Shown in pieces: positions 1 through 35,928 of a DNA stretch of 38,548 nucleotides; position 1 is the first letter of the stretch, and each line of letters starts with the position of its first letter. The notes beneath the pieces are model-generated. The model did not search any database, was not told the origin of the DNA, and saw only the letters and a list, made by a program, of their open reading frames with translations. Origin of the DNA: a virus (lineage: Duplodnaviria; Heunggongvirae; Uroviricota; Caudoviricetes); IMG/VR virus record IMGVR_UViG_2563366976_000006, one strand, 5' to 3'. The translations under genes and the position numbers were made by a program.

Positions 1-1053
1 TTACGGGGTAATGCCAACCGCTGCCGCCACTTTGTCGCCACTTGGCAGCGTTGCCAGAGGATTGAAACGGAGCGCCGTTTCTAGATGATCCGGTGCCAGA
101 TGTGCGTAACGCATAGTCATTTTTATATCGTGGTGTCCGAGAATTTTTTGTAAGGCCAGAATGTTTCCACCCGACATCATGAAGTGCGCCGCAAACGTAT
201 GGCGCAGAACGTGTGTGAGTTGACCGCGAGGGAGCACGATAGACGTTTTTTCCATCACGGATAAAAATTGAAAATAGCAGTCTGTGAAGAAATTGAACCC
301 ATCAAGCGCCATGATCTCTTCGTAAAGCTCTTTACTGATAGGGATGCTTCTGTTTTTCTTCCCCTTCGTTCTGACAAAGGTAATTCGGTATTTGGTCACC
401 TGTGAGCGGGTAAGATTTACGGCTTCACGCCAGCGTGCGCCTGTGCTTAAGCATATCTTAACTACCGGTGCCAGAATTGGGTCCTGACGTTTGCAATCAG
501 CCAGCAATTCAACAATCTGCTCATGGGTAAGCCATGCCATCTCTTTTTCTGCGATGGTGAATTTTCGCATGTTCTCCAGTGGGTTCGGATACGACCATTC
601 GCCCAGACGGGATAGTTCGCTAAAAACACTACTTAGATAGCTTTGCTCCAGGTTAATGGTGACCGGGCTTGCTCCTTTCTTCCATTTCTCGCTGAAGTAG
701 ATCTCGCCTGTCAGGCGTTTATCTCGATAGTGGGCAAACATTTTAGAGGTGAGATCGGTTGCAAGAGGATTGCCCAGAGCGTCAACCATCAACAGCAATT
801 TGTCATAGACATGCTGCCCAGCTGTCAGAGATTTACCATGTAGTTTGAACCATAGCTCAACCACGTCTTTCAGTGTTCGACGATCCACTGATTCACCCAG
901 CCAGGGCTTTGCTTCGGTTTCTTCCATCGTGTGGCGCTCAAAAGCCAGTGCTTCGCCTTTGGTGGCGAATTGTTTACGCACACGACGCCCACTTCGTCCG
1001 GCGGGGTAACATTCGCAAAGCCATTTCCCTGTGGTTAGTTTTCGTACTGCCAT
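1..1053 (-). CDS. int: phage tyrosine integrase (P2/186 Int family)
   Basis: 350-aa ORF; C-terminal catalytic region with HxxR and a tyrosine (MTMRYAHL); stop codon at 1-3; position next to cI. Confidence 0.9.
   Translation of the reverse strand: MAVRKLTTGKWLCECYPAGRSGRRVRKQFATKGEALAFERHTMEETEAKPWLGESVDRRTLKDVVELWFKLHGKSLTAGQHVYDKLLLMVDALGNPLATDLTSKMFAHYRDKRLTGEIYFSEKWKKGASPVTINLEQSYLSSVFSELSRLGEWSYPNPLENMRKFTIAEKEMAWLTHEQIVELLADCKRQDPILAPVVKICLSTGARWREAVNLTRSQVTKYRITFVRTKGKKNRSIPISKELYEEIMALDGFNFFTDCYFQFLSVMEKTSIVLPRGQLTHVLRHTFAAHFMMSGGNILALQKILGHHDIKMTMRYAHLAPDHLETALRFNPLATLPSGDKVAAAVGITP
19..41. repeat. candidate attL core (cgctgccgccaCtttgtcgccaC)
   Basis: 21/23 identical to 35694-35716 in direct orientation; lies inside the 3' end of int. 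Confidence 0.5.
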
Positions 1054-1135: not shown

Positions 1136-2812
1136 CTAAGCAACATGTAGTTCATCGTTGGCGGAAGTGGCTGCTTTGCGCTCCTGCTCAATAGCTAGAG
1201 ACTCTCTATATTCTTTCGCCTCTGCAAACATTGTCCAGTGGGCGTTGATGTTCATGTCTTCAATAACTGATTTGATTTCTTTTAAATTTACGTTAAAAAA
1301 CTCTTTTCGTGAGTTAATTTTATTGACCTGCTTTTCGTTGAAAACTTTATGCAGATGGTTTTCTAATGATGGTGCATCATCACTATAAATCATCGCATGA
1401 ACATCGAACGAAAAAGGAACACTAGCATCTCCGAGTTCACGAACACGATCAAGTGGTTCAAGGCGGCGTGTCATTCCAATTTTATATACATCTTCGCCAA
1501 ATGAACCAATATTACTAATGATATAGACGTGGCCTGATCTGGTTTGTTGAGCCATAGAAATAGCTCGTTGATTTTTAGCTTCTGCTTCTTCATATTTTAA
1601 CTGTAGTTCAGCTATTTTTTGCTCTAAAGCTAAGCGTTGTTCTTCATTTGCAAGCATAAGTTCTTTCGTTGCTTTATTTATAGCTTGCTGAATAGCTTTT
1701 TCTTCTTTTTCAGCTTCTTTTATCGCTTTTTCATATTCTCTACGAGCTCTTTCCTCTTCACGAAGCTGTTCTTTAATCCTTCTTTGCTCTTCTTTTTCTT
1801 CGAGCATAATTTCATTAACTGCTACACCCCATTTTAGCTCGTTGAGTCTTGCCTGAAGATAGATGTCACTTATTTTTGCGGACCTAAAGGCAGAGCCATT
1901 GTAATTTACTAGTTGAAATGCATCTTTTATTTCTTGGGAAAGTTTTCCAAAATTGTTGTGTTTGACTTTTGATAAAATACTGTCAACTCTTCCATTGAAG
2001 GCATCCAAAACAAAGTTTATGGAAGTATTACGCCTGTTTTGCTCAACATAATCACACGAAGCAGCTTTATTAGTTTTTATTAATGATTTGGTTAACTCTC
2101 TGGCTTTTTGTAATTCCTTGCCTGCATCTGTAAATTCATAATTTTCTGCCAGCTCATCAAGTACACTACGGTTAGGGATGATCCATTCATCACCATAACC
2201 TTCAATTTTATTTTTCATTGATTTTGCAACTGCTTCATATTTTTCTGCAAACTCTTTAGCTTCATATGCTGAACCAGCAATCTCCTTTGCTCTTTCTTCT
2301 GCATCAGAAATAATTTTTACTGCATTGTCATTAGCATTTGAGATTAGCTCATTTGCTTTATTATTAGCATTATCAAGACGTTCTTTGGCTTTCAGGCGTG
2401 CATCGCGAGCGTCTTTGGTGATTGCTATAGCTTCGCTATTAGCGTTGCTTATTGTCATCTGAGCTTGATAATTTGCTTCGTTTACTGTTTTAGCCGCCTT
2501 AATTTGGGCATCATCTATTTTTTGCTTGGCTATTGAGTCCGCATTTTTTATCTTATTCTCTGCATCCATTACTGCGCTGTGCAATTCTTCGTATTGCCAC
2601 AATGGTGCTGCTCGCCCTTCAAGCTCTGATAATTCTCGTACGGTCTGTGCTAGTTTTTCTTGATTTTCAATCAGTTGGTTAGAAAGGGCTATGTTGTTAG
2701 CTGTCAGGTTATCTATAGCCGCTTTGTGTTTTTTACTTTGTTTAAATAATATTACAGCTAGAACAGGGGCGAGAAATGCTAATAAGAGTATAACGATGGC
2801 AAATGAATTCAT
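1136..2812 (-). CDS. membrane-anchored coiled-coil protein with DUF4041-like middle and T5orf172/GIY-YIG-like C-terminal domain (moron)
   Basis: 558-aa ORF; N-terminal hydrophobic helix, long E/K/A-rich coiled coil, C-terminal segment VYIISNIGSFGEDVYKIGMT typical of T5orf172-type domains; AT-rich relative to neighbours; AAGGA SD upstream. Confidence 0.6.
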   Translation of the reverse strand: MNSFAIVILLLAFLAPVLAVILFKQSKKHKAAIDNLTANNIALSNQLIENQEKLAQTVRELSELEGRAAPLWQYEELHSAVMDAENKIKNADSIAKQKIDDAQIKAAKTVNEANYQAQMTISNANSEAIAITKDARDARLKAKERLDNANNKANELISNANDNAVKIISDAEERAKEIAGSAYEAKEFAEKYEAVAKSMKNKIEGYGDEWIIPNRSVLDELAENYEFTDAGKELQKARELTKSLIKTNKAASCDYVEQNRRNTSINFVLDAFNGRVDSILSKVKHNNFGKLSQEIKDAFQLVNYNGSAFRSAKISDIYLQARLNELKWGVAVNEIMLEEKEEQRRIKEQLREEERARREYEKAIKEAEKEEKAIQQAINKATKELMLANEEQRLALEQKIAELQLKYEEAEAKNQRAISMAQQTRSGHVYIISNIGSFGEDVYKIGMTRRLEPLDRVRELGDASVPFSFDVHAMIYSDDAPSLENHLHKVFNEKQVNKINSRKEFFNVNLKEIKSVIEDMNINAHWTMFAEAKEYRESLAIEQERKAATSANDELHVA

Positions 2813-9430: not shown

Positions 9431-9565
9431 GAAACGTTGCTGGCGTCTGAACTTGTTTCTGGCGTCAGCAAGGTTGAACAACGAGCCCTTGCGAGGCGTT
9501 AGCTCTGTAGTGCATGTCTATGCCGCATGAGATCGCATGATCGTTTGAGGATCGTTTTTGCTAAG

Positions 9566-9590
9566 GCCCGCCAGAACTGGCGGGCTTTTG
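9566..9590 (+). terminator. rho-independent terminator (GCCCGCCAG..CTGGCGGGC TTTT)
   Basis: 9-bp GC-rich perfect stem followed by TTTT after the tum/dinI operon. Confidence 0.6.
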
Positions 9591-9640
9591 CGTAGATCAT
9601 GCAGGTGCATGAAAACCACTACATAAAGCGGGCAGGCGTG

Positions 9641-9659
9641 GCGGGGATACGAGCGCGCG
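9641..9659 (+). other. cos-like cohesive-end sequence (GGCGTGGCGGGGA...)
   Basis: First 13 nt match the 186 cohesive end as I recall it, 14/19 to P2; correct position (after early region, before Q) and orientation. Confidence 0.45.
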
Positions 9660-9675
9660 CTTGCCATCGAACTCT

Positions 9676-9858
9676 TTCTTTATTAGACTCAAAATGCTCT
9701 TTAGTGTAGGAACAATGGTTCCAGCCGGGTGATTAGCCAGGCTCTAATTTATTGTCCATAACAGGGTTGCGAAAGACACACACTCCTCCTTCGCATATCC
9801 TGCTTGGGCAGTCTATGCGAAGGAGGAGTGCATGTCTTTCGCTGTCTTTAGTAAAGGG
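9676..9858 (+). ncRNA. candidate retron msr-msd non-coding RNA (boundaries approximate)
   Basis: Immediately upstream of the retron RT; contains a 72-nt near-perfect hairpin and small msr-like hairpin (GGAAC AATG GTTCC); tentative a1/a2 pairing 9676-9687 with 9847-9858 needs G-U wobbles. Confidence 0.4.
9770..9841 (+). repeat. long inverted repeat / hairpin, candidate msd stem-loop
   Basis: 28-nt arms complementary at 26/28 positions, 16-nt loop containing an additional 4-bp stem. Confidence 0.6.
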
Positions 9859-9860
9859 CA

Positions 9861-10844
9861 ATGCTCGCTGCAATTGTTGCAGCGAGCATATCTGAGATGG
9901 ATATTATGCAGCTTGAAAAAAAATTATGTGAAAAATTCAACCTTACCCCTTTGAAGCTTTCTATCCTCTCATCCAAAGCTCCAAAAAAATATCGCGTATA
10001 TTATATACCCAAGAGAACTTCTGGTCTTAGGGCGATTGCTCAGCCGACTAAAGAGTTGAAGCAAATTCAACGTTTTTTGGTTTCGGAGTTGAAGCCTCTT
10101 TTGCCAATTCATTCATCAGCAATGGCTTACAGATGTGGCATAAGCATTAAGGATAATGCTGAACGTCACAAGAACAATCCATTTATATTAAAAATGGATT
10201 TTCAGAATTTTTTTAATAAAATTAAACCGGAAATTTTTTTTGATAAGTTCAAAAAAATGGATGTTCAACACAACGCCAGAGATGAAATACTTCTGCACAA
10301 TTTTTTGTTTTGGAAGCCAGGGCAAAAAAGAAGTATTACACATATATTGAGCGTAGGAGCACCGAGTTCTCCATTCATTAGTAATTTTGTCATGTTTGAT
10401 TTTGATTCAGCTATCAGTGAGTGGTGTGCTGATTTTGGTATTGTTTATACTCGTTATGCGGATGATATAACATTTTCAACCGCTAGAAAAAATATTTTAT
10501 TCAGTGTTCCTAAAATAGTTAAAAACATGCTTGCTGAGCACGCATCAGGTATTACCATTAATGAAGCCAAGACCATTTTTACATCTAAGGCTCACAATAG
10601 GCATGTTACAGGTGTAACTATTACTACTGATGGTGAATTATCTATAGGGCGAAAGAGAAAAAAATATCTTTTCTCTCTTGTTTTTAAATATAGCAATGGG
10701 AACTTGACAAGTGAAGAAATTTTATATGCTAAAGGACTGATGTCTTATTGCATGCATATTGAAAGAAATATAATAATAAGAATGAAAAATAAGTATGGTG
10801 CGGAAGTTATCAATAAATTTCTTAAGGAAGGTTGTGATGAATGA
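9861..10844 (+). CDS. retron-type reverse transcriptase
   Basis: 327-aa ORF; RVYYIPKRTSGLRAIAQPTKELK motif and YADD catalytic box; start may be 9861, 9897 or 9906. Confidence 0.85.
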   Translation: MLAAIVAASISEMDIMQLEKKLCEKFNLTPLKLSILSSKAPKKYRVYYIPKRTSGLRAIAQPTKELKQIQRFLVSELKPLLPIHSSAMAYRCGISIKDNAERHKNNPFILKMDFQNFFNKIKPEIFFDKFKKMDVQHNARDEILLHNFLFWKPGQKRSITHILSVGAPSSPFISNFVMFDFDSAISEWCADFGIVYTRYADDITFSTARKNILFSVPKIVKNMLAEHASGITINEAKTIFTSKAHNRHVTGVTITTDGELSIGRKRKKYLFSLVFKYSNGNLTSEEILYAKGLMSYCMHIERNIIIRMKNKYGAEVINKFLKEGCDE

Positions 10845-12450
10845 TTCTAAAAAAAGAGTGGATAATGTTTTTTCGGAGTTTATTGGTCTGATTAATGATG
10901 GCGTGCCTGAGGATAAATTAAAATATTCACCTGTATTGAATTTGCTAAATGAATCTTTAAATAAAGACAACTTATACCTTAAGAAAATATCAATTGTAGA
11001 CTTCAAAAGATTAAGGGATGTTATTGTAAATCTTGAAGATGATCTCACAGTTTTTGTTGCTGACAACGGCTATGGTAAAACAACTTTGCTTGATGCGATC
11101 GCAATTTCTTTAAGTTGGCTTCGTTCTAATATACAGAAAAAAGATAAACCTGGGTCGTATATAAGGGAAGTGGATATAAATAACTCAAAAGATGCCTTGT
11201 ATGCATCTATTGCTGCAACATTTAAAGTACAAGAGCTGAATACTAATGTTTTAATCACAAATGCAAAAGATGGTGTGTCTTTTAAACGCAGTAACGATTT
11301 ACAAGAAATTAAGCTGCTAGCAACAATGTACCGCTATGTTAATACGTTCTTAGATAATTCAAGTCTACCTGTGATGGCTTATTATTCAATTGTTAGGTCT
11401 GTCGTTGGTGGTGGTATTGATAATAGAAGAAGAAGCGGTAAGAATAAAGTTTCTTGGTCCAAATTTGATGTGTATGACGATTTCATGTTTGATAGAAATG
11501 ATTTTGGCGAATTTTTAAATTGGCTCATGTTTTTATCGAATAAATCCGCTCATGAGAATCCAGTGGTCACTGATAACCCAGAGTTACTCAGAAAGGAAAT
11601 AGAAAGTATCAATAACACAATTGAACAACTAAGTATTGTTTCTAACATCGATTTTAGTATTATTAATCAGCTAAAGAGTAGTCTTGAAGAGAAAAAAAAC
11701 CAATTAAATAAGTTTAGTAGTGAAGGGTTTTTAAGTTCATCTGTCTTATATAGGAATGTAATAAATGCTATATTGAGATTTTTGCCTGAATTCGAAAGCA
11801 TTAATCTGGTTTATAGTGAGACTGATGTTAAGCTTGTTCTTATCAAGAATGGTATTCAATTAGATGCGCAACAACTCTCACAAGGTGAGAAAACCATACT
11901 TACTCTGGTAGGTGATTTAGCTCGCCGACTTTCCCTTTTGAATCCAGAGCTACAAAATCCATTTGAAGGTCAAGGCATAGTATTAATTGATGAGGTTGAT
12001 TTGCACCTTCATCCAACTTGGCAGCAGAAAATTATAGAGCGGCTATTAACAACCTTTCCTAATGTTCAGTTTGTTCTTTCTACACACAGCCCTCAAGTCA
12101 TATCTACTGTTCCTGCCAGGAGCATAAGGATTTTAGAGGAGGTGGAAGATGAATTTGGTGATATTTCGATAAAAGCTGTTAGGCCCCGCTTTCAAACTAA
12201 AGGGGTGATGAATAGTGATGCATTACTTTATGGAATGGGAGCAGACCCTGCGCCTCCTGTAGAAGAAGTAAAATGGTTGGAAGAGTACAAAAAATTTATT
12301 GAATTGGATCAGTTTGATAGCGATTCAGCGCTTAAACTACGCCAGAATATAATAAGTCACTTTGGGGAAGATCATCCTTTAGTTGTAGAACTCGATCAGA
12401 TGACTTCACTCATGGAGTTTAAAAGAAAAATTAGAAATAAAAAACAATGA
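10837..12450 (+). CDS. retron effector ATPase (PtuA-like, ABC/AAA-type)
   Basis: Walker A DNGYGKTT, Walker B LIDEVDLHLH; start overlaps RT stop by 8 nt. Confidence 0.8.
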   Translation: MNDSKKRVDNVFSEFIGLINDGVPEDKLKYSPVLNLLNESLNKDNLYLKKISIVDFKRLRDVIVNLEDDLTVFVADNGYGKTTLLDAIAISLSWLRSNIQKKDKPGSYIREVDINNSKDALYASIAATFKVQELNTNVLITNAKDGVSFKRSNDLQEIKLLATMYRYVNTFLDNSSLPVMAYYSIVRSVVGGGIDNRRRSGKNKVSWSKFDVYDDFMFDRNDFGEFLNWLMFLSNKSAHENPVVTDNPELLRKEIESINNTIEQLSIVSNIDFSIINQLKSSLEEKKNQLNKFSSEGFLSSSVLYRNVINAILRFLPEFESINLVYSETDVKLVLIKNGIQLDAQQLSQGEKTILTLVGDLARRLSLLNPELQNPFEGQGIVLIDEVDLHLHPTWQQKIIERLLTTFPNVQFVLSTHSPQVISTVPARSIRILEEVEDEFGDISIKAVRPRFQTKGVMNSDALLYGMGADPAPPVEEVKWLEEYKKFIELDQFDSDSALKLRQNIISHFGEDHPLVVELDQMTSLMEFKRKIRNKKQ

Positions 12451-12462
12451 GGAGACTTGAGG

Positions 12463-13131
12463 ATGAAATTTCTTCGAAGGATATATCCTGGCCCTAACGT
12501 GCTAAGTAGTTATGATTTTAATACTCAAACTTGGGATGATGTATCATCATCTGACAAAAAAGATATTTGGGTAGATTTAGTTAAAATGCAAGGCAAAGTA
12601 TGCGCTTATTGTGAAAGGAAAATAAACCTAACAAAAGAGGGGGATAAGCATATTGAGCATTTCAAGCGAAAAGGTATTCATCGCGAATTAACGTTTAACT
12701 GGGAGAATCTGTTTGGTTCGTGTGGGGAAAAACAAAGATGCGGATTCTACAAAGACAAACAAGAATATAATGAGGGTGACCTGTTAAAAGCTGATGAAAT
12801 GGATCCTGAAGATTTTTTTGTTTTTATCTATAGTGGTGATGTTATTGTAAAACCTGAGATAAATGAACGAAATAAAGTAATAGCTGAGGTTACCCTGAGG
12901 GTATTCAATCTTAATCCCGAGAACGGTGGTGTTAAAGCCGAGAGAAGAAATGTCCTCGAGAAAGGCTTAGGCACTATAAAGGGGTATGTTAAGATTGCTC
13001 AAGACTTAATTGATAGTGGTGAGGATGCAGAAGAAGTTCGGCAATATGTTCGGGATGAGTATTATGAAAAAATTTCACAAATGGATTTTAAAACTGCAAG
13101 GAAACATGTTTTTGAAGCATTTCTACCTTGA
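12463..13131 (+). CDS. retron effector HNH endonuclease (PtuB-like)
   Basis: CAYCERK...HIEHF...C-x-x-C pattern; GGAG SD; 12 nt after ATPase stop. Confidence 0.75.
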   Translation: MKFLRRIYPGPNVLSSYDFNTQTWDDVSSSDKKDIWVDLVKMQGKVCAYCERKINLTKEGDKHIEHFKRKGIHRELTFNWENLFGSCGEKQRCGFYKDKQEYNEGDLLKADEMDPEDFFVFIYSGDVIVKPEINERNKVIAEVTLRVFNLNPENGGVKAERRNVLEKGLGTIKGYVKIAQDLIDSGEDAEEVRQYVRDEYYEKISQMDFKTARKHVFEAFLP

Positions 13132-20691: not shown

Positions 20692-21085
20692 AGCGGTGCC
20701 TTATGTCCGCAATAACCCGGACAAACTGCATCTGTTTGTGGATAACGGTTCGCTGGTTGCCACGGGGGCCAGCTCCATGTCGTGGGAGTACCGTTACACC
20801 CTGAACGCGGTGATTGAGGATTTCAGCGGCGACCAGAATCTGCTGATGGCCCCGGTTTTGCTGTGGCTGAGGGATAACCAGCCCGATGCCATCAATAACC
20901 CGGCGTTACGGGAAAAACTATTCACCTTTGAGGTGGATATTCTGCGCAACGATGTCTGTGATATCAGCCTGAACCTGCAACTGACGGAGCGTGTGCTGGT
21001 CAGCACTGACGGCAGTGTGTCGAGCGTTGAAGCTGTAGCAGAACCCGATGAACCTGAAGAAATGTGGACGGTGAAACGTGGCTGA
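20654..21085 (+). CDS. R: tail completion protein (P2 gpR family)
   Basis: GTG start with AGGAG SD; conserved position. Confidence 0.75.
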   Translation: MNKPQSLRHALNKAVPYVRNNPDKLHLFVDNGSLVATGASSMSWEYRYTLNAVIEDFSGDQNLLMAPVLLWLRDNQPDAINNPALREKLFTFEVDILRNDVCDISLNLQLTERVLVSTDGSVSSVEAVAEPDEPEEMWTVKRG

Positions 21086-21527
21086 ACTGCAGAAGGTGGA
21101 CGACTGGTTGAGTGCCTTGCTGGCGAATCTGGAACCAGCCACGAGAAGTCGCATGATGCGCCAGCTGGCGCAGGAACTGCGCCGGACACAACAGAAGAAC
21201 ATCAAGATGCAGCGCAATCCAGATGGCAGTAGTTATGAACCGCGACGGGTAACAGCACGCAGTAAAAAGGGGCGTATCAAACGTCAGATGTTTGCAAAGC
21301 TGCGCACCACAAAATATCTGAAAACTGCCGCCAGCGCCGATTCTGCCAGCGTGCAGTTTGAAGGTAAGGTGCAGCGCATTGCCCGCGTTCATCACTACGG
21401 CCTGCGCGATCGTGTCAGTCGTAAGGGACCGGAGGTCCGTTACGCAGAGCGTCGCCTGCTGGGTGTAAATGATGATGTTGAAGCAAATATTCGTGATATT
21501 TTGCTACGTTGGCTAAGCCAATATTAA
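21078..21527 (+). CDS. S: tail completion/virion morphogenesis protein (P2 gpS family)
   Basis: 149-aa ORF overlapping R end. Confidence 0.8.
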   Translation: MAELQKVDDWLSALLANLEPATRSRMMRQLAQELRRTQQKNIKMQRNPDGSSYEPRRVTARSKKGRIKRQMFAKLRTTKYLKTAASADSASVQFEGKVQRIARVHHYGLRDRVSRKGPEVRYAERRLLGVNDDVEANIRDILLRWLSQY

Positions 21528-21528
21528 T

Positions 21529-22224
21529 TCATGTCAAATATTGATAACTTTTATCAATTTCAAGTTTGTGAAATTTGGTTATCTTTGAATCAATGTATAA
21601 ATCTATGAACATTGCTATCCCTATCATAAATATAAATAGAATGCTTAAATAAATAATGGGGGTGGCAATCATAATTGTAAATTTGTTCTTGTCTGTCGTT
21701 TTTGCTAACTCTTCTTTCTTTTCAGGAATTAGCAAGTAGCTACAAATGAAATCTTTTGTGGCTTGTTGGATTGAAGTGATCTTATCAAGCTGTGACTTGT
21801 CAACACATACATCTGGTGTGATATTCCATTCAGGTGTGTATGGTATGTTTTGTGCGTGTTCTGGTTTCATCCAAAAGGAATCTTTTGTTTCTCTATGTGT
21901 GATTTCAACCCAATTTACGGGTTCTTTGGCGATGAAATAGGTAAATTTATAAAAACAAAGTGCTGAGGTCATAATGACTGCAATTCCAAATGAGACGATA
22001 AATATTTTATGTTTTTTAATATGGGGTTTTGTGCTTAACTTATATTTGCAAAGACTAAGTCTAATAATTGGCTTTGATATTCCAATCTTTGATATCAAAA
22101 AGTCTTCTTCTGGATAGGATGTGTTTAACCATGACCAAAAAGCCGAGATGCCACCTATAAGCCATTTAAATATAAGACCACCAATGGCCGTAGCTAAAAA
22201 TGTATTTATTTTATCGATTTCCAT
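21529..22224 (-). CDS. AT-rich moron: predicted 3-TM membrane protein of unknown function, antisense to late operon
   Basis: 231-aa ORF on opposite strand between S and V; strongly AT-rich DNA; hydrophobic helices at N-terminus, middle and C-terminus. Confidence 0.6.
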   Translation of the reverse strand: MEIDKINTFLATAIGGLIFKWLIGGISAFWSWLNTSYPEEDFLISKIGISKPIIRLSLCKYKLSTKPHIKKHKIFIVSFGIAVIMTSALCFYKFTYFIAKEPVNWVEITHRETKDSFWMKPEHAQNIPYTPEWNITPDVCVDKSQLDKITSIQQATKDFICSYLLIPEKKEELAKTTDKNKFTIMIATPIIYLSILFIFMIGIAMFIDLYIDSKITKFHKLEIDKSYQYLT

Positions 22225-22278: not shown

Positions 22279-22324
22279 ATGAAGCGAGGTTCGTTAAAAT
22301 AGGAATCACGGGCATTCTTTCTTC

Positions 22325-22902
22325 ATGAACGCACAATTAACCGAAATCATGCGCCTTATCACCAACCTGATCCGCACTGGTGTAGTCACCGAAGTGGACC
22401 GGGAAAACTGGCTTTGCCGGGTGAAAACGGGCGACCTTGAAACCAACTGGATTAACTGGCTGACGCTGCGCGCGGGTAATGCCGCACATGGTGGAAACCA
22501 TCGGAAGGTGAGCAGGTGGTGCTGCTGAGTCTGGGAGGCAATCTGGAAACCGCCTTTGCGTTGCCCGCTGTCTATTCGAATCAGTTCGCGCCACCTTCGA
22601 CGTCGGCGGACGCCTGCGTGACAGAACATCCTGACGGTGGCTGGTTTGAATACGAACCCGCCACCGGGCGCTGGTATGTCAGGGGCATCAAATCCATGGT
22701 CATTGAGGCTGCCGACAACATCACCCTGAAAACCAGTGAGTTTGTGCTGGAGGCTGACCGCACGCGTATTAACAGCGAAGTAGTGATCAATGGTGGTGTT
22801 ACCCAGGGCGGCGGTGCAATGAGTTCTAACGGAATTGTGGTTGATGCACATCAGCATACTGGCGTCCTGAAAGGCGGCGACACAACCGGAGGCCCGGTAT
22901 GA
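22325..22902 (+). pseudogene. V: baseplate spike gene (P2 gpV family) interrupted by a frameshift near 22480-22490
   Basis: N-terminal 52 codons in one frame (22325 onward) and the rest in another (ending 22902); the two ORFs together cover a normal-length V. Confidence 0.65.
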
Positions 22903-23258
22903 CGCTTTATAGCGGGATGAACAATACCAGCGGCAAAGTCATTACTGATATTGACCATCTGCGCCAGTCGGTGCGGGACATTCTGCTGACGCCGCAGGGT
23001 AGCCGCATTGCCCGTCGGGAATATGGTTCCCTACTGTCGGCACTGATAGATCAGCCACAAAATCCGGCATTACGCCTGCAGGTCATGTCGGCAGTGTATG
23101 TGGCGCTGAGTCGCTGGGAGCCACGGCTGACGCTGGATTCCATCACCATCAACAGCAACTTTGACGGTTCTATGGTGGTGGAGCTGACCGGGCGGCGGAA
23201 TAACGGTGTGCCTGTGTCCCTTTCCGTATCAACAGGAGCAGAGAATGGCAGTGATTGA
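22899..23258 (+). CDS. W: baseplate protein (P2 gpW family)
   Basis: 119-aa ORF in conserved V-W-J-I order. Confidence 0.85.
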   Translation: MTLYSGMNNTSGKVITDIDHLRQSVRDILLTPQGSRIARREYGSLLSALIDQPQNPALRLQVMSAVYVALSRWEPRLTLDSITINSNFDGSMVVELTGRRNNGVPVSLSVSTGAENGSD

Positions 23259-24751: not shown

Positions 24752-26295
24752 GCACAAAATTTTATACCCTGCTGACGGATATTGGCGCGGCGAAACTTGC
24801 CAGCGCCGCCGCGCTCGGTGTGCCGCTAAAAATTACCCATATGGCGGTCGGCGATGGCGGCGGAGTATTGCCAACGCCAGACTCAAAGCAGACTGCACTG
24901 GTAAATGAGAAACGCCGGGCTGCGCTGAATATGCTCTATATCGACCCGCAGAACAGCAGCCAGATTATTGCCGAACAGGTGATCCCTGAAAACGAGGGCG
25001 GTTGGTGGATACGTGAAGTGGGCTTGTTTGATGAGTCCGGGGCATTGATTGCCGTGGGCAACTGCCCGGAAAGCTATAAGCCGCAACTGGCTGAAGGTAG
25101 CGGGCGCACTCAGACCGTGCGCATGGTGCTGATTACCAGCAGCACGGACAATATCACCCTGAAAATCGACCCTGCCGTAGTGCTGGCAACCCGCAAGTAT
25201 GTGGATGACAAGGCACTGGAGCTGAAGGTGTACGCGGATGATCAGATGGCAAAACATCTTGCCGCACCGGACCCGCATTCACAGTATGCACCCAAAGAAA
25301 GTCCGACGTTTACCGGGACACCCAAAGCGCCAACGCCAGCCGCAGGGAATAACACCACGCAGGTTGCGACCACTGCGTTTGTACAGGCGGCACTGACGGC
25401 CCTTATTAATGGTGCGCCAGCCACGCTGGACACGCTGAAAGAAATAGCCGCAGCCATTAACAATGATCCGAATTTCAGTACCACCATTAACAATGCGCTG
25501 GCACTAAAAGCACCGTTGTCGAGTCCGGCACTCACCGGAACGCCAACAGCCCCCACGGCGGCGCAGTCGGTCAACAATACACAGATTGCCACTACGGCTT
25601 TTGTGAAATCGGCGATTGCGGCAATGGTGGGTTCTGCACCTGCGGCACTGGATACACTGAACGAACTGGCGGCGGCGCTGGGGAATGATCCGAACTTTGC
25701 CACGACAATGCTTAATGCGCTGGCAGGTAAACAACCGCTGGACAATACGCTGACTAATTTGAGTGGAAAGGATGTAGCTGGTCTTCTCGCATACCTTGGT
25801 TTGGGAGAAGGCTCAGCGTTACCCGTTGGTGTGCCTGTTCCGTGGCCTTCAGCCACACCACCAACAGGCTGGCTGAAATGCAACGGTGCACCTTTTTCTG
25901 CCGAAGAGTACCCAAAACTGGCAAAGGCTTACCCAAAGTTAAAATTACCGGATTTGCGCGGTGAGTTTATTCGCGGGTGGGATGATGGGCGAGGTGTTGA
26001 TTCCGCGAGACTGCTGCTTTCAAGTCAGGCAGCATCTATCCTTGAACATAACCATGAAATGCATGGATGGACAGGGAACCCACTCATGGCTAGAGATGTT
26101 GGTGAATTAGGTACATCATACGTATTTGCGGTGCAGTTGAGCATTGGCGATGGCGGGTTATTGTATTCGTGGAAGGATGGGAGTGGAACAACAAATGACA
26201 GTAAACGAATGGATAGAACAAATCATGTCAGTTCCGGCGCCGGTGATGGTAGCCCGCGAAACATTGCATTTAACTACATTGTGAGGGCTGCATAA
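24748..26295 (+). CDS. H: tail fibre protein (P2 gpH family) with switchable C-terminal domain
   Basis: 515-aa ORF; internal ~72-aa tandem repeats; C-terminal region lies inside the invertible segment. Confidence 0.85.
   Translation: MSTKFYTLLTDIGAAKLASAAALGVPLKITHMAVGDGGGVLPTPDSKQTALVNEKRRAALNMLYIDPQNSSQIIAEQVIPENEGGWWIREVGLFDESGALIAVGNCPESYKPQLAEGSGRTQTVRMVLITSSTDNITLKIDPAVVLATRKYVDDKALELKVYADDQMAKHLAAPDPHSQYAPKESPTFTGTPKAPTPAAGNNTTQVATTAFVQAALTALINGAPATLDTLKEIAAAINNDPNFSTTINNALALKAPLSSPALTGTPTAPTAAQSVNNTQIATTAFVKSAIAAMVGSAPAALDTLNELAAALGNDPNFATTMLNALAGKQPLDNTLTNLSGKDVAGLLAYLGLGEGSALPVGVPVPWPSATPPTGWLKCNGAPFSAEEYPKLAKAYPKLKLPDLRGEFIRGWDDGRGVDSARLLLSSQAASILEHNHEMHGWTGNPLMARDVGELGTSYVFAVQLSIGDGGLLYSWKDGSGTTNDSKRMDRTNHVSSGAGDGSPRNIAFNYIVRAA
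25784..25809. repeat. inversion crossover site (left), 26-bp Gin/Hin-type imperfect palindrome
   Basis: ttctcgcatacc tt ggtttgggagaa; inverted copy at 27757-27782; shared 15-mer TTGGTTTGGGAGAAG. Confidence 0.55.
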
Positions 26296-26898
26296 ATGGA
26301 ACAGGCTATTTTGGGAAAAGACGGTTACGCTTTAAATGATGGGGAAATCATCGTACATAACTATGATGGCGAAACGCGGGAATATATTTCTACATCAACT
26401 GAATATCTCGCTGTCGGCGTCGGTATCCCGGCATGTTCCTGTCTGGATGCGCCAGGTGCACATAAGGCTGGTTATGCAATTTGCCGTTCTGTAGAATTAA
26501 ATTCATGGGAATATGTGCCAGATCATCGCGGCGAAACTGTTTATAGCACGGAAAATGGCCGGAAAGTAACCATTTCAGATATTGGCGAATATCCCGAAAA
26601 TACAACCACTATCGCCCCATTAACGCCATATGATAAATGGGATGGTGAGAAATGGGTGACCGATACTGAGGCACAGCATAGCGCCGCAGTAGACGCGGCA
26701 GAAGCACAGCGTCAGTCACTGATTGATGCTGCAATGGCTTCCATCAGTCTGATTCAGCTGAAATTACAGGCCGGACGGAAGTTGATGCAGGCAGAAACAA
26801 CCCGGCTTAACGCTGTGCTGGATTACATTGACGCGGTGACGGCAACAAATACCAGCACAGCGCCGGATGTCATCTGGCCTGAACTGCCGGAGGCGTAG
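26296..26898 (+). CDS. G: tail fibre assembly protein (P2 gpG family), active orientation
   Basis: 200-aa ORF directly after H. Confidence 0.8.
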   Translation: MEQAILGKDGYALNDGEIIVHNYDGETREYISTSTEYLAVGVGIPACSCLDAPGAHKAGYAICRSVELNSWEYVPDHRGETVYSTENGRKVTISDIGEYPENTTTIAPLTPYDKWDGEKWVTDTEAQHSAAVDAAEAQRQSLIDAAMASISLIQLKLQAGRKLMQAETTRLNAVLDYIDAVTATNTSTAPDVIWPELPEA

Positions 26899-27313
26899 GC
26901 CATTCAATATCTGGCGCACCGGAAATATCGACCAGTTCCAGTGCGTCCAGATAATCCAGCCACGAATTATATTGCGCCAGTTCCTCGCCTTTCAGACGAC
27001 CAATAGCAGCTTTGCCAGGCCACTGATGGGTATTGATGTAGGTATTGACTTCTGAAACCAAAGATATTTTTTTCATTTCAGCCGTCAACACCTCATCCTC
27101 TTTTGAAGGGGGGGGGGAATTAATCCATACTGGCCGTCCTGAACTATCAGCGCCAATTTCTTTCCCTTCTGGATGCAGACCAAGAAATTGCTCATATGTT
27201 TCTCTGGTAATTTCAATAACATCATCAGGAAGCGTTCCCGCATCCTCATATTCTGGAAACAATTCTTGCAGATAAAAACTTTTACTTCCGGGTGAAAAGA
27301 ATACTGAGTTCAT
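26870..27313 (-). CDS. alternative tail fibre assembly protein (silent orientation)
   Basis: 147-aa ORF convergent with G, C-terminus similar to G C-terminus (DYLDA...WPE/WPTPP). Confidence 0.7.
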   Translation of the reverse strand: MNSVFFSPGSKSFYLQELFPEYEDAGTLPDDVIEITRETYEQFLGLHPEGKEIGADSSGRPVWINSPPPSKEDEVLTAEMKKISLVSEVNTYINTHQWPGKAAIGRLKGEELAQYNSWLDYLDALELVDISGAPDIEWPTPPAVQAR

Positions 27314-27315
27314 TA

Positions 27316-27810
27316 TTACCGTCCAATGATTAACGCTGAGACGCTGGTATCTGAAGGAAAGGCTGCATTCAGTGGTTTGTCGACTTTGAACACAATCGTA
27401 TTATTCCCCCTGACAGCGGCAAAAGAACAAACCGCAGTCGCGTATGAACCTGTAATATTACTGGATACACCACCATAAGCTGTTGTTGATACCAGAGGGA
27501 TAACGCCCAGTACCTTATTAGGAAATACAAAGGGCAATGTGGCTGTGGCAATATAAGACTTATTAGAACCTGTGATGGCATAAGCATTATCAGTCATTCC
27601 ATTCATCGCCACTGGGCCGCTTATACTTACAGTAACCATCTGTATGATTAGCCCGTCAGGTTGACGAATCACAAAATTTCCATTGCCACCAGTAACCGTC
27701 CAGAAAGACATATCAGGGATTTGGTTTTCCCCGTTGCCCACATTCCGTTTTGCCGCTTCTCCCAAACCAACGTTTAAGAAAATGCAGCGATTACGGCTAA
27801 CTGGCATCAT
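27316..27810 (-). CDS. alternative tail fibre C-terminal cassette (silent orientation; fused to H after inversion)
   Basis: Shares the GLGE junction codons with H at the crossover site; no independent promoter or SD expected. Confidence 0.6.
   Translation of the reverse strand: MMPVSRNRCIFLNVGLGEAAKRNVGNGENQIPDMSFWTVTGGNGNFVIRQPDGLIIQMVTVSISGPVAMNGMTDNAYAITGSNKSYIATATLPFVFPNKVLGVIPLVSTTAYGGVSSNITGSYATAVCSFAAVRGNNTIVFKVDKPLNAAFPSDTSVSALIIGR
27757..27782. repeat. inversion crossover site (right)
   Basis: ttctcccaaacc aa cgtttaagaaaa, inverted relative to 25784-25809. Confidence 0.5.
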
Positions 27811-27831: not shown

Positions 27832-28404
27832 ATGATCATGCTTATTGGCTATGTACGCGTGTCAACAAATGACCAGAACACCGATTTGCAACGTAATGCG
27901 CTGAACTGCGCGGGATGTGAGCGGATTTTTGAGGACAAAATCAGTGGCACTAAGTCCGACAGACCGGGGCTTAAAAAACTGCTCAGGACACTATTGGCAG
28001 GAGACACGCTGGTTGTCTGGAAGCTGGACAGGTTGGGGCGCAGTATGCGGCATCTTGTTACGCTGATAGAAGAGTTGCGCCAGCGTGGTGTGAATTTCCG
28101 AAGCCTGACTGACAGTATTGATACCAGTACCCCAATGGGCCGTTTCTTTTTTCATGTCATGGGTGCCCTGGCTGAAATGGAACGCGAACTGATAGTTGAA
28201 CGTACCCGGGCAGGGCTGGCTGCAGCTCGTGCTAAAGGCAGAGTAGGTGGACGCCGTCCTAAGTTGACCACTGAACAGTGGGCACAGATTGGACGTTTAC
28301 TCGAGGCCGGAGAATCAAGACAGCGTATTGCACTGATTTTTGATGTAGGCGTTTCTACCATTTATAGAAAATTTCCGGCAAATAAGAGCAATGAATCCCC
28401 CTGA
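27832..28404 (+). CDS. serine DNA invertase (Gin/Pin/Hin/Cin family)
   Basis: MLIGYVRVSTNDQNTDLQ N-terminus with catalytic serine; C-terminal HTH; adjacent to inverted repeats. Confidence 0.9.
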   Translation: MIMLIGYVRVSTNDQNTDLQRNALNCAGCERIFEDKISGTKSDRPGLKKLLRTLLAGDTLVVWKLDRLGRSMRHLVTLIEELRQRGVNFRSLTDSIDTSTPMGRFFFHVMGALAEMERELIVERTRAGLAAARAKGRVGGRRPKLTTEQWAQIGRLLEAGESRQRIALIFDVGVSTIYRKFPANKSNESP

Positions 28405-30298: not shown

Positions 30299-30601
30299 AT
30301 GAGCGATAAGCAGACTGAAAAGACCATTCAACTGGATACCCCTATCAAGCGCGGTAAAACAGAAATTACCGAAATTGTGCTGCGTAAACCGCAGTCCGGT
30401 GCGCTGCGCGGTACACGCCTGCAGGCCATTATGGATATGGATGTGAACGCGATGATGACCGTGATCCCCCGCATCTCCAGCCCGGCACTGACCGCACAGG
30501 AAATTGCAGAGATGGACCCGGCAGATCTCACCGCCATGTCGGTTGAGGTTGTCACTTTTTTGTTGAAGAAGTCGGTGCTTGCCGGTTTACCGACAGCCTG
30601 A
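30299..30601 (+). CDS. E: tail assembly chaperone E
   Basis: 100-aa ORF upstream of tape measure; slippery site near its 3' end. Confidence 0.8.
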   Translation: MSDKQTEKTIQLDTPIKRGKTEITEIVLRKPQSGALRGTRLQAIMDMDVNAMMTVIPRISSPALTAQEIAEMDPADLTAMSVEVVTFLLKKSVLAGLPTA

Positions 30602-35474: not shown

Positions 35475-35693
35475 ATGATGATTTGCCCACTGTGTGGAAG
35501 TGCCGCCCATACTCGCAGCAGTTTTCAGGTATCTTCATTGACCAAAGAGCGTTACAACCAGTGCCAGAACATTAACTGCAGCCATACTTTTGTTACCCAT
35601 GAAACTTTTGTTCGTTCGATTGCAACGCCCAAAGAGTCAAATCCGGTTCAGCCGCATCCAATGAAATCAGGACAGGTGGCGCTCTCTCTTTGA
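35475..35693 (+). CDS. ogr: late gene transcriptional activator, Ogr/Delta zinc-finger family
   Basis: CPLC...C-x-x-x-x-C zinc finger; last phage gene before the right att repeat. Confidence 0.8.
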   Translation: MMICPLCGSAAHTRSSFQVSSLTKERYNQCQNINCSHTFVTHETFVRSIATPKESNPVQPHPMKSGQVALSL

Positions 35694-35716: not shown

Positions 35717-35773
35717 CGTTAAAAAACAGTGCTTCTAACATCATGATTTTAAATAGCATAAATTTCAGGCAAC

Positions 35774-35816
35774 AAAAAACCCATCAACCTTGAACCGAAA
35801 TGGCGGGGTTGATGGG
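35774..35816 (-). terminator. candidate rho-independent terminator downstream of ybjL (minus strand)
   Basis: 10-bp stem cccatcaacc/ggttgatggg followed by TTTTTT on minus strand; loop is long (17 nt). Confidence 0.45.
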
Positions 35817-35928
35817 CTCCACAAAATGGGGACATCAAAGAAAAGCAGTGGCACTAATTAAGACTGATGCCCTGCGGAAAAGTTCTGCGGTTGTGCAAAA
35901 AAATTTCATTTTCAGGGCAACTTCAGTT

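Follow-up and report, generated by a model that had tools for sequence, protein, structure and literature searches.

Gene V of the P2/186-like prophage described here, which encodes the baseplate central spike, is broken by the loss of a single base directly after codon 53, and this lesion lies at one defined position, is reproducible in other sequences, and is restricted to one prophage genotype. Very probably, we are dealing with a real and vertically inherited loss-of-function mutation in V, and the prophage should build neither baseplates nor tails and should release no infectious particles. The window, i.e., the whole stretch of 38,548 nt that was analyzed, consists almost wholly of this prophage, from the integrase gene (positions 1 to 1053, minus strand) to ogr (about 35475 to 35693). 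The features around V are compiled in Table 1.

Table 1. Gene V, its lesion, and neighboring features in the window
Feature	Positions	Strand	Source
Gene V (baseplate central spike), frameshifted pseudogene; intact form 192 aa	22325..22902	+	ORFs, alignment, PGAP, Pfam
ORF1, 67 aa, stop TGA at 22526-22528	22325..22528	+	ORF listing
ORF2, 128 aa, GTG start (former codon 65)	22516..22902	+	ORF listing
Lesion: CC where intact relatives show CCC, directly after codon 53 (GCC, Ala)	22482..22483	+	Alignments to intact V
AGGTGA, Shine-Dalgarno-like hexamer, 4 nt upstream of GTG 22516	22506..22511	+	Sequence inspection
Gene S (tail completion/virion morphogenesis), intact, upstream of V	21078..21527	+	PGAP, Pfam Phage_tail_S
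Gene W (GPW/gp25 baseplate wedge), intact	22899..23258	+	ORF listing, PGAP

Closer inspection of the two reading frames revealed that ORF1 retains native V sequence for 53 residues from the N terminus and then runs out of frame for 14 residues (AHGGNHRKVSRWCC). The frame of ORF2, −1 relative to that of ORF1, contains a TAA at 22477 to 22479 and opens at 22480; ORF2 retains the last part of the OB domain together with the beta-helix and the HxH motif of the Apex. Residues 54 to 64 (RTWWKPSEGEQ), 9 of which are identical in P2 gpV, are missing from ORF1 and ORF2 alike. To define the lesion, the closest intact orthologue, the 192-aa protein of Escherichia coli FORC_081 (WP_134162526.1), was taken as the reference. 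Over 611 bases (22300 to 22910), the window differs from FORC_081 by one gap and one substitution, and GGTAATGCCCGCACATGG of FORC_081 corresponds to GGTAATGCCGCACATGG in the window. The ancestral GCCCGC has become GCCGC, and the codons GCC CGC now read GCC GCA. Alignment to intact V, which the initial annotation had suggested for locating the indel, gave one 1-base gap after codon 53 of 192, and this single indel relative to intact close orthologues accounts for the entire disruption of V. The same annotation had placed the frame change near 22480 to 22490, an interval that indeed includes the missing C (ORFs and FORC_081 alignment), and its description of one frame that stops at 22526 to 22528, with the rest of V continuing to 22902 in another, agrees with the ORF listing and the sequence.

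Repair of V by one added base yields a protein of 192 aa. The reconstituted V matched P2 gpV (PDB 3qr8) with an E value of 3.7e-43 over residues 3 to 150 (residues 5 to 151 of P2 gpV) and the R-type pyocin spike (4s37) with an E value of 2.2e-16. Residues 17 to 84 of the reconstituted protein correspond to positions 1 to 75 of the OB domain profile Phage_base_V (PF04717; 64.5 bits, cut-off of 23.8), and residues 106 to 128 of ORF2 (170 to 192 of the reconstituted protein) match Apex (PF18946; 27.3 bits, cut-off of 20.8). The sequence HQHTG of V aligns with HKHPG of P2 gpV, the iron-binding HxH motif. ORF1 alone covers profile positions 1 to 43 of Phage_base_V only, and the OB domain is interrupted at position 43 of 75, that is, inside the barrel and not at a domain boundary. 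Among the features of the P2 gpV/Phage_base_V family, the OB fold, the HxH Apex, and the position in the baseplate cluster are all found here; the single uninterrupted frame is not. V in this prophage is, therefore, a pseudogene member of that family, and the ORF pair is a specific lesion in a recognizable gene rather than a chance pattern of ORFs.

In our model, one C was deleted from the CCC run at codons 53/54, and translation from the start of V would leave the native frame after Ala53 and terminate 14 codons later. A restart at GTG 22516 would, at best, give a separate C-terminal fragment of 128 aa. Such a restart is plausible because AGGTGA lies 4 nt before the GTG and because the stop of ORF1 overlaps the start of ORF2; as a putative Shine-Dalgarno sequence, the hexamer, which sits within the conserved coding sequence for SEGEQV, could permit reinitiation and the formation of a free C-terminal fragment. 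Neither product would have a complete OB-fold domain, which fixes the trimeric spike to the tube and the baseplate hub, and the restart product, devoid of residues 1 to 64, could not dock on the baseplate. Repression, excision, replication, the filling of heads, and lysis of the host should all remain possible; the prophage would lack baseplates and tails and, hence, infectious particles, and would give no support to satellites. Induction would most likely lead to lysis and to heads filled with DNA, but not to baseplates, tails, or infectious particles. We infer this phenotype from the position of the break in the OB fold and from the corresponding mutant of P2, since P2 vir1 Vam1 (Gln9-amber) does not grow on a nonsuppressor host (bioRxiv 10.1101/2023.02.25.529910). 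A leaky phenotype is conceivable, as three spike subunits suffice per virion. A second, complementing copy of V was not seen in E. coli N10 and 23CRST038, two complete genomes that carry the prophage (see below); a search for close matches to V gave one place per record. In prophage inventories, this lineage is to be scored as defective (tail-less), and it is not expected to form plaques, to transduce, or to help P4-like satellites.

The deletion is not peculiar to the window. The 611 bases around V, including the deletion, are 100% identical in the RefSeq complete genomes of E. coli N10, a CSF isolate, and 23CRST038, isolated from feces in Ecuador. In both genomes PGAP labels the locus (ACYX5Y_RS16585 and AC6IZS_RS07725, respectively) "phage baseplate assembly protein V, frameshifted". 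The window differs from 23CRST038 by two single nucleotide polymorphisms (SNPs; 1583 and 18831) and from N10 by four SNPs (three outside and one inside an invertible segment) and by the inversion of 25796 to 27773. Since the three differ by SNPs and, in the case of N10, by the inversion, they are distinct sequences of the same prophage, located at the same chromosomal site. A 61-mer centered on the deletion matched 270 complete E. coli genomes and was identical only in N10 and 23CRST038; the other 28 among the matches listed keep CCC, with 98.4% identity and one extra base. At least 10 contigs encode the exact 67-aa product of ORF1, a product that is possible only with the deletion; these contigs come from one metagenome each of JGI and ENA and from several Logan run assemblies. 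The exact 128-aa product of ORF2 was found on 185 contigs and in 280 index blocks and equals GenBank entry ELE02702.1 of E. coli KTE51. Sequencing runs SRR640107, SRR14076450, and ERR12816091 are among the carriers. Nearly all carriers fetched are 100% identical to the window over 1.2 to 6.2 kb; one contig (L012) has one mismatch, and another (L007) has eight SNPs and a 115-bp deletion in the adjacent DUF6216 gene. Among 47 V-matching records of the phage collection, none had 100% identity over V, and each of the 25 phage records listed spans 587 bases compared to 586 in the query; these 25, thus, do not have the deletion.

The frameshift looks recent. The repaired protein is residue-for-residue identical to a MULTISPECIES allele of V present on at least 1,000 contigs, and all other structural, lysis, replication, and regulatory genes of the prophage are intact according to the PGAP annotation of 23CRST038. 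Because the repaired V is a common allele and the other genes are intact, the loss of V is taken to be young and, judged from the sequences, appears to be a single event carried in one clonal prophage lineage; the three full-length sequences are only two to four SNPs apart across the 38.5-kb window. The presence of the allele in hundreds of assemblies could reflect clonal hitchhiking or a tolerance of, or benefit from, the defect. The sole other defect flagged by PGAP is a small hypothetical ORF of 60 codons (9527 to 9709, plus strand), which is interrupted by an internal stop and is marked as a pseudogene in N10 and 23CRST038 alike.

The initial annotation had offered two readings, a prophage that is defective in tail assembly and an assembly error of the homopolymer type. 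The former reading is the one that we adopt; the latter, in which a short homopolymer was miscalled and the real gene is intact, we consider extremely unlikely. It is true that the lesion falls in a homopolymer and that repair yields a very common allele. However, the run is short (CCC to CC), and a run of three bases is not known to be error prone on any current sequencing platform. Furthermore, the deletion is common to three sequences that differ elsewhere, it recurs in independent JGI, ENA, and Logan assemblies, and it is limited to one prophage genotype, whereas a systematic error that depends on sequence context would turn up here and there among the genomes that match the 61-mer. The assembly error was rejected on these grounds, namely reproducibility and restriction to one genotype. 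More generally, a frameshift in a short homopolymer can be separated from an assembly error without reads by asking whether independent public assemblies encode exactly the same truncated products. A different reading accepts the deletion and lets full-length V be made from the two frames by −1 ribosomal frameshifting, programmed or at least efficient, or by transcriptional slippage. The frame of ORF2 has the right sign, and the frames overlap at 22480 to 22528, such that one −1 slip in this region would fuse them; a weak motif, T GGA AAC, which fits the A site only, is present at 22492. A scan of 22480 to 22528 revealed neither an X XXY YYZ heptamer nor a homopolymer of at least four bases, although the same scan, as a positive control, recovered the canonical in-frame T TTT TTG at 30556 to 30562 (plus strand) near the end of the tail-chaperone gene E, the site at which programmed −1 frameshifting for E+E′ is expected. 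Predicted folding of 22480 to 22600 (minimum free energy of −45.1 kcal/mol; z = −1.35 compared to shuffled sequences) was matched by 22 of 200 shuffles and does not stand out from what base composition alone gives. Relatives encode V in one frame, with the deletion in 2 of 270 genomes and the intact allele on at least 1,000 contigs, and a slip at 22492 would turn residues 54 to 57, RTWW, within RTWW-PS-GEQV, which is identical in P2, into AHGG. The sequence features, therefore, leave programmed recoding of V unsupported and make it highly improbable, and spontaneous −1 slippage may occur at a trace level.

It is likewise very doubtful that V works as a split gene, with the 67-aa piece and the 128-aa restart product assembling into a working spike. 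The hexamer in front of GTG 22516 and the overlap of stop and start, which favors translational coupling, would allow for such an arrangement, the beta-helix and Apex motif are kept in ORF2, and an N-terminally truncated construct of P2 gpV, gpVdL, has been crystallized. On the other hand, the cut is within the OB-fold barrel and not between domains, the eleven residues RTWWKPSEGEQ are in neither piece, ORF1 ends in 14 foreign residues, and no relative is organized in this way. Somewhat less remote, though still unlikely, is that V is not simply dead: rare −1 slippage in the 49-nt overlap might give leaky phage at a very low titer, or the loss of V might be favored in a successful clone by blocking spread to competitors and keeping the defense cargo. 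We found no positive support for either. We attach an equally small probability to selective retention of the defect, i.e., to a "grounded" prophage that no longer spreads and is kept because of what it carries (the SNIPE-associated protein, the DUF6216 protein, and the retron with its PtuA/PtuB). The three low-GC accessory blocks of the prophage and the hundreds of assemblies with the frameshifted allele speak for this scenario. However, the genes for the repressor, lysis, replication, and heads are intact, so induction should still kill the host, a cost that the loss of V does not lift, and the two to four SNPs across the 38.5-kb window fit neutral hitchhiking in a successful clone. A true loss-of-function mutation, inherited with the prophage, thus remains our preferred explanation. 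As such, V is an ordinary pseudogene of a well-characterized gene. RefSeq already gives it a frameshift label, and half of the gene has been in the databases under the name of V since the KTE51 genome was deposited; prophages with single inactivating indels are commonplace, and the frameshift raises no new biological question.

A comparison with known systems shows where V departs from its relatives. The reconstituted protein shares the Pfam domains and the HxH Apex with P2 gpV (PDB 3qr8, 3qr7, and 3aqj), and the gene order S-V-W-J-I-H of P2 is that of the window; gpV of P2 has 211 aa compared to 192 aa here, where the frame is broken after residue 53. In the window, a gene for a DUF6216 protein on the opposite strand lies between S and V, a place that in P2 is occupied by orf30. 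The pseudogenes of N10 and 23CRST038 share with the window the deletion, the prophage, and the site of insertion, which lies between rcdA and ybjL. In the E/E′ tail-chaperone genes of this prophage, as in V, two frames of a tail gene overlap, and the distal part is read at −1. The E/E′ frameshift is known as a conserved feature of the family. It has the canonical T TTT TTG, whereas the site in V, without any slippery heptamer, occurs in one prophage genotype only. The spike PA0616 of R-type pyocin (PDB 4s37) is a homologous OB-fold and beta-helix spike, but of a tailocin and not of a phage. Tailocins of the R-type pyocin kind also carry a spike, and hence, the loss of V does not make the prophage a tailocin.

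Irregular copies of V were also encountered in other records. A contig of an ENA metagenome (ERZ28751023 contig_3121; L014:1008-1226) has another P2-like backbone without the DUF6216 gene and a V with about 98% identity, in which one inserted base turns GCGCG into GCGCGC at a point 9 bp upstream of the CCC site; this frameshift yields the same 128-aa ORF2. The insertion either arose as a mutation in its own right or is an error of the metagenome assembly. A mutational hot spot was considered and not called, as the second lesion rests on this single contig, for which the read technology is not known. In several small "plasmid" records of E. coli 13P477T (NZ_CP019274.1 and NZ_CP019279.1), near-identical copies of the V region are 586 and 590 bases long compared to the expected 587, and these differences may reflect indel noise in the assemblies.

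As annotated by PGAP in the corresponding region of 23CRST038, which is two SNPs away from the window, the genes of the prophage are ordered int, CI, cox-like, CII, Fil, Dam, A, Q P O N M L X, holin, lysozyme, LysB/C, R, S, V, W, J, I, H, G, FI, FII, E, E′, T, U, D, and ogr; the start of W overlaps the stop codon of V (ATGA). With CI, CII, and Fil as well as a DinI-like gene, the prophage is of the 186-like kind. The element is inserted in E. coli at the 3′ end of rybB, between rcdA and ybjL. The RybB small RNA was identified at 35771 to 35849 (minus strand; Rfam RF00110, 105 bits), and a 14-bp direct repeat, AACAAAAAACCCAT, flanks the element at 35771 to 35784 and at 1913 to 1926 of contig L004, 87 bp before the start of the window. 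The repeat is probably the att core that rebuilds the end of rybB.

The prophage also carries accessory genes. A SNIPE-associated-domain protein of 558 aa (1136 to 2812, minus strand; 36 to 37% GC) is encoded between the integrase and the CI repressor and is probably defense cargo at the int/C hot spot; the SNPs at 1583 and 2023 among the three prophage copies fall in this gene. Between the replication genes and the portal gene lies a retron block (9861 to 13131, plus strand; 32 to 38% GC) whose ORFs are annotated by PGAP as an St85-family reverse transcriptase, an AAA ATPase, and the Ec78-type effector HNH nuclease PtuB. It looks like antiphage cargo, although Rfam did not detect its msr/msd RNA at the gathering threshold. 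Directly upstream of V, the AT-rich gene at 21529 to 22224 (minus strand) encodes the DUF6216 protein, a predicted membrane protein of 231 aa (Pfam, 44 bits), and is a moron. Finally, a tail fiber segment, comprising the C terminus of H and alternative fiber assembly genes, is bounded by 27-nt imperfect inverted repeats (25784 to 25810 and 27756 to 27782) and adjoined by a serine recombinase gene (27832 to 28404, plus strand). The segment has the same orientation in the window and 23CRST038 and is flipped in N10, and these opposite orientations indicate that the invertase has been active since the strains of N10, 23CRST038, and the window diverged.
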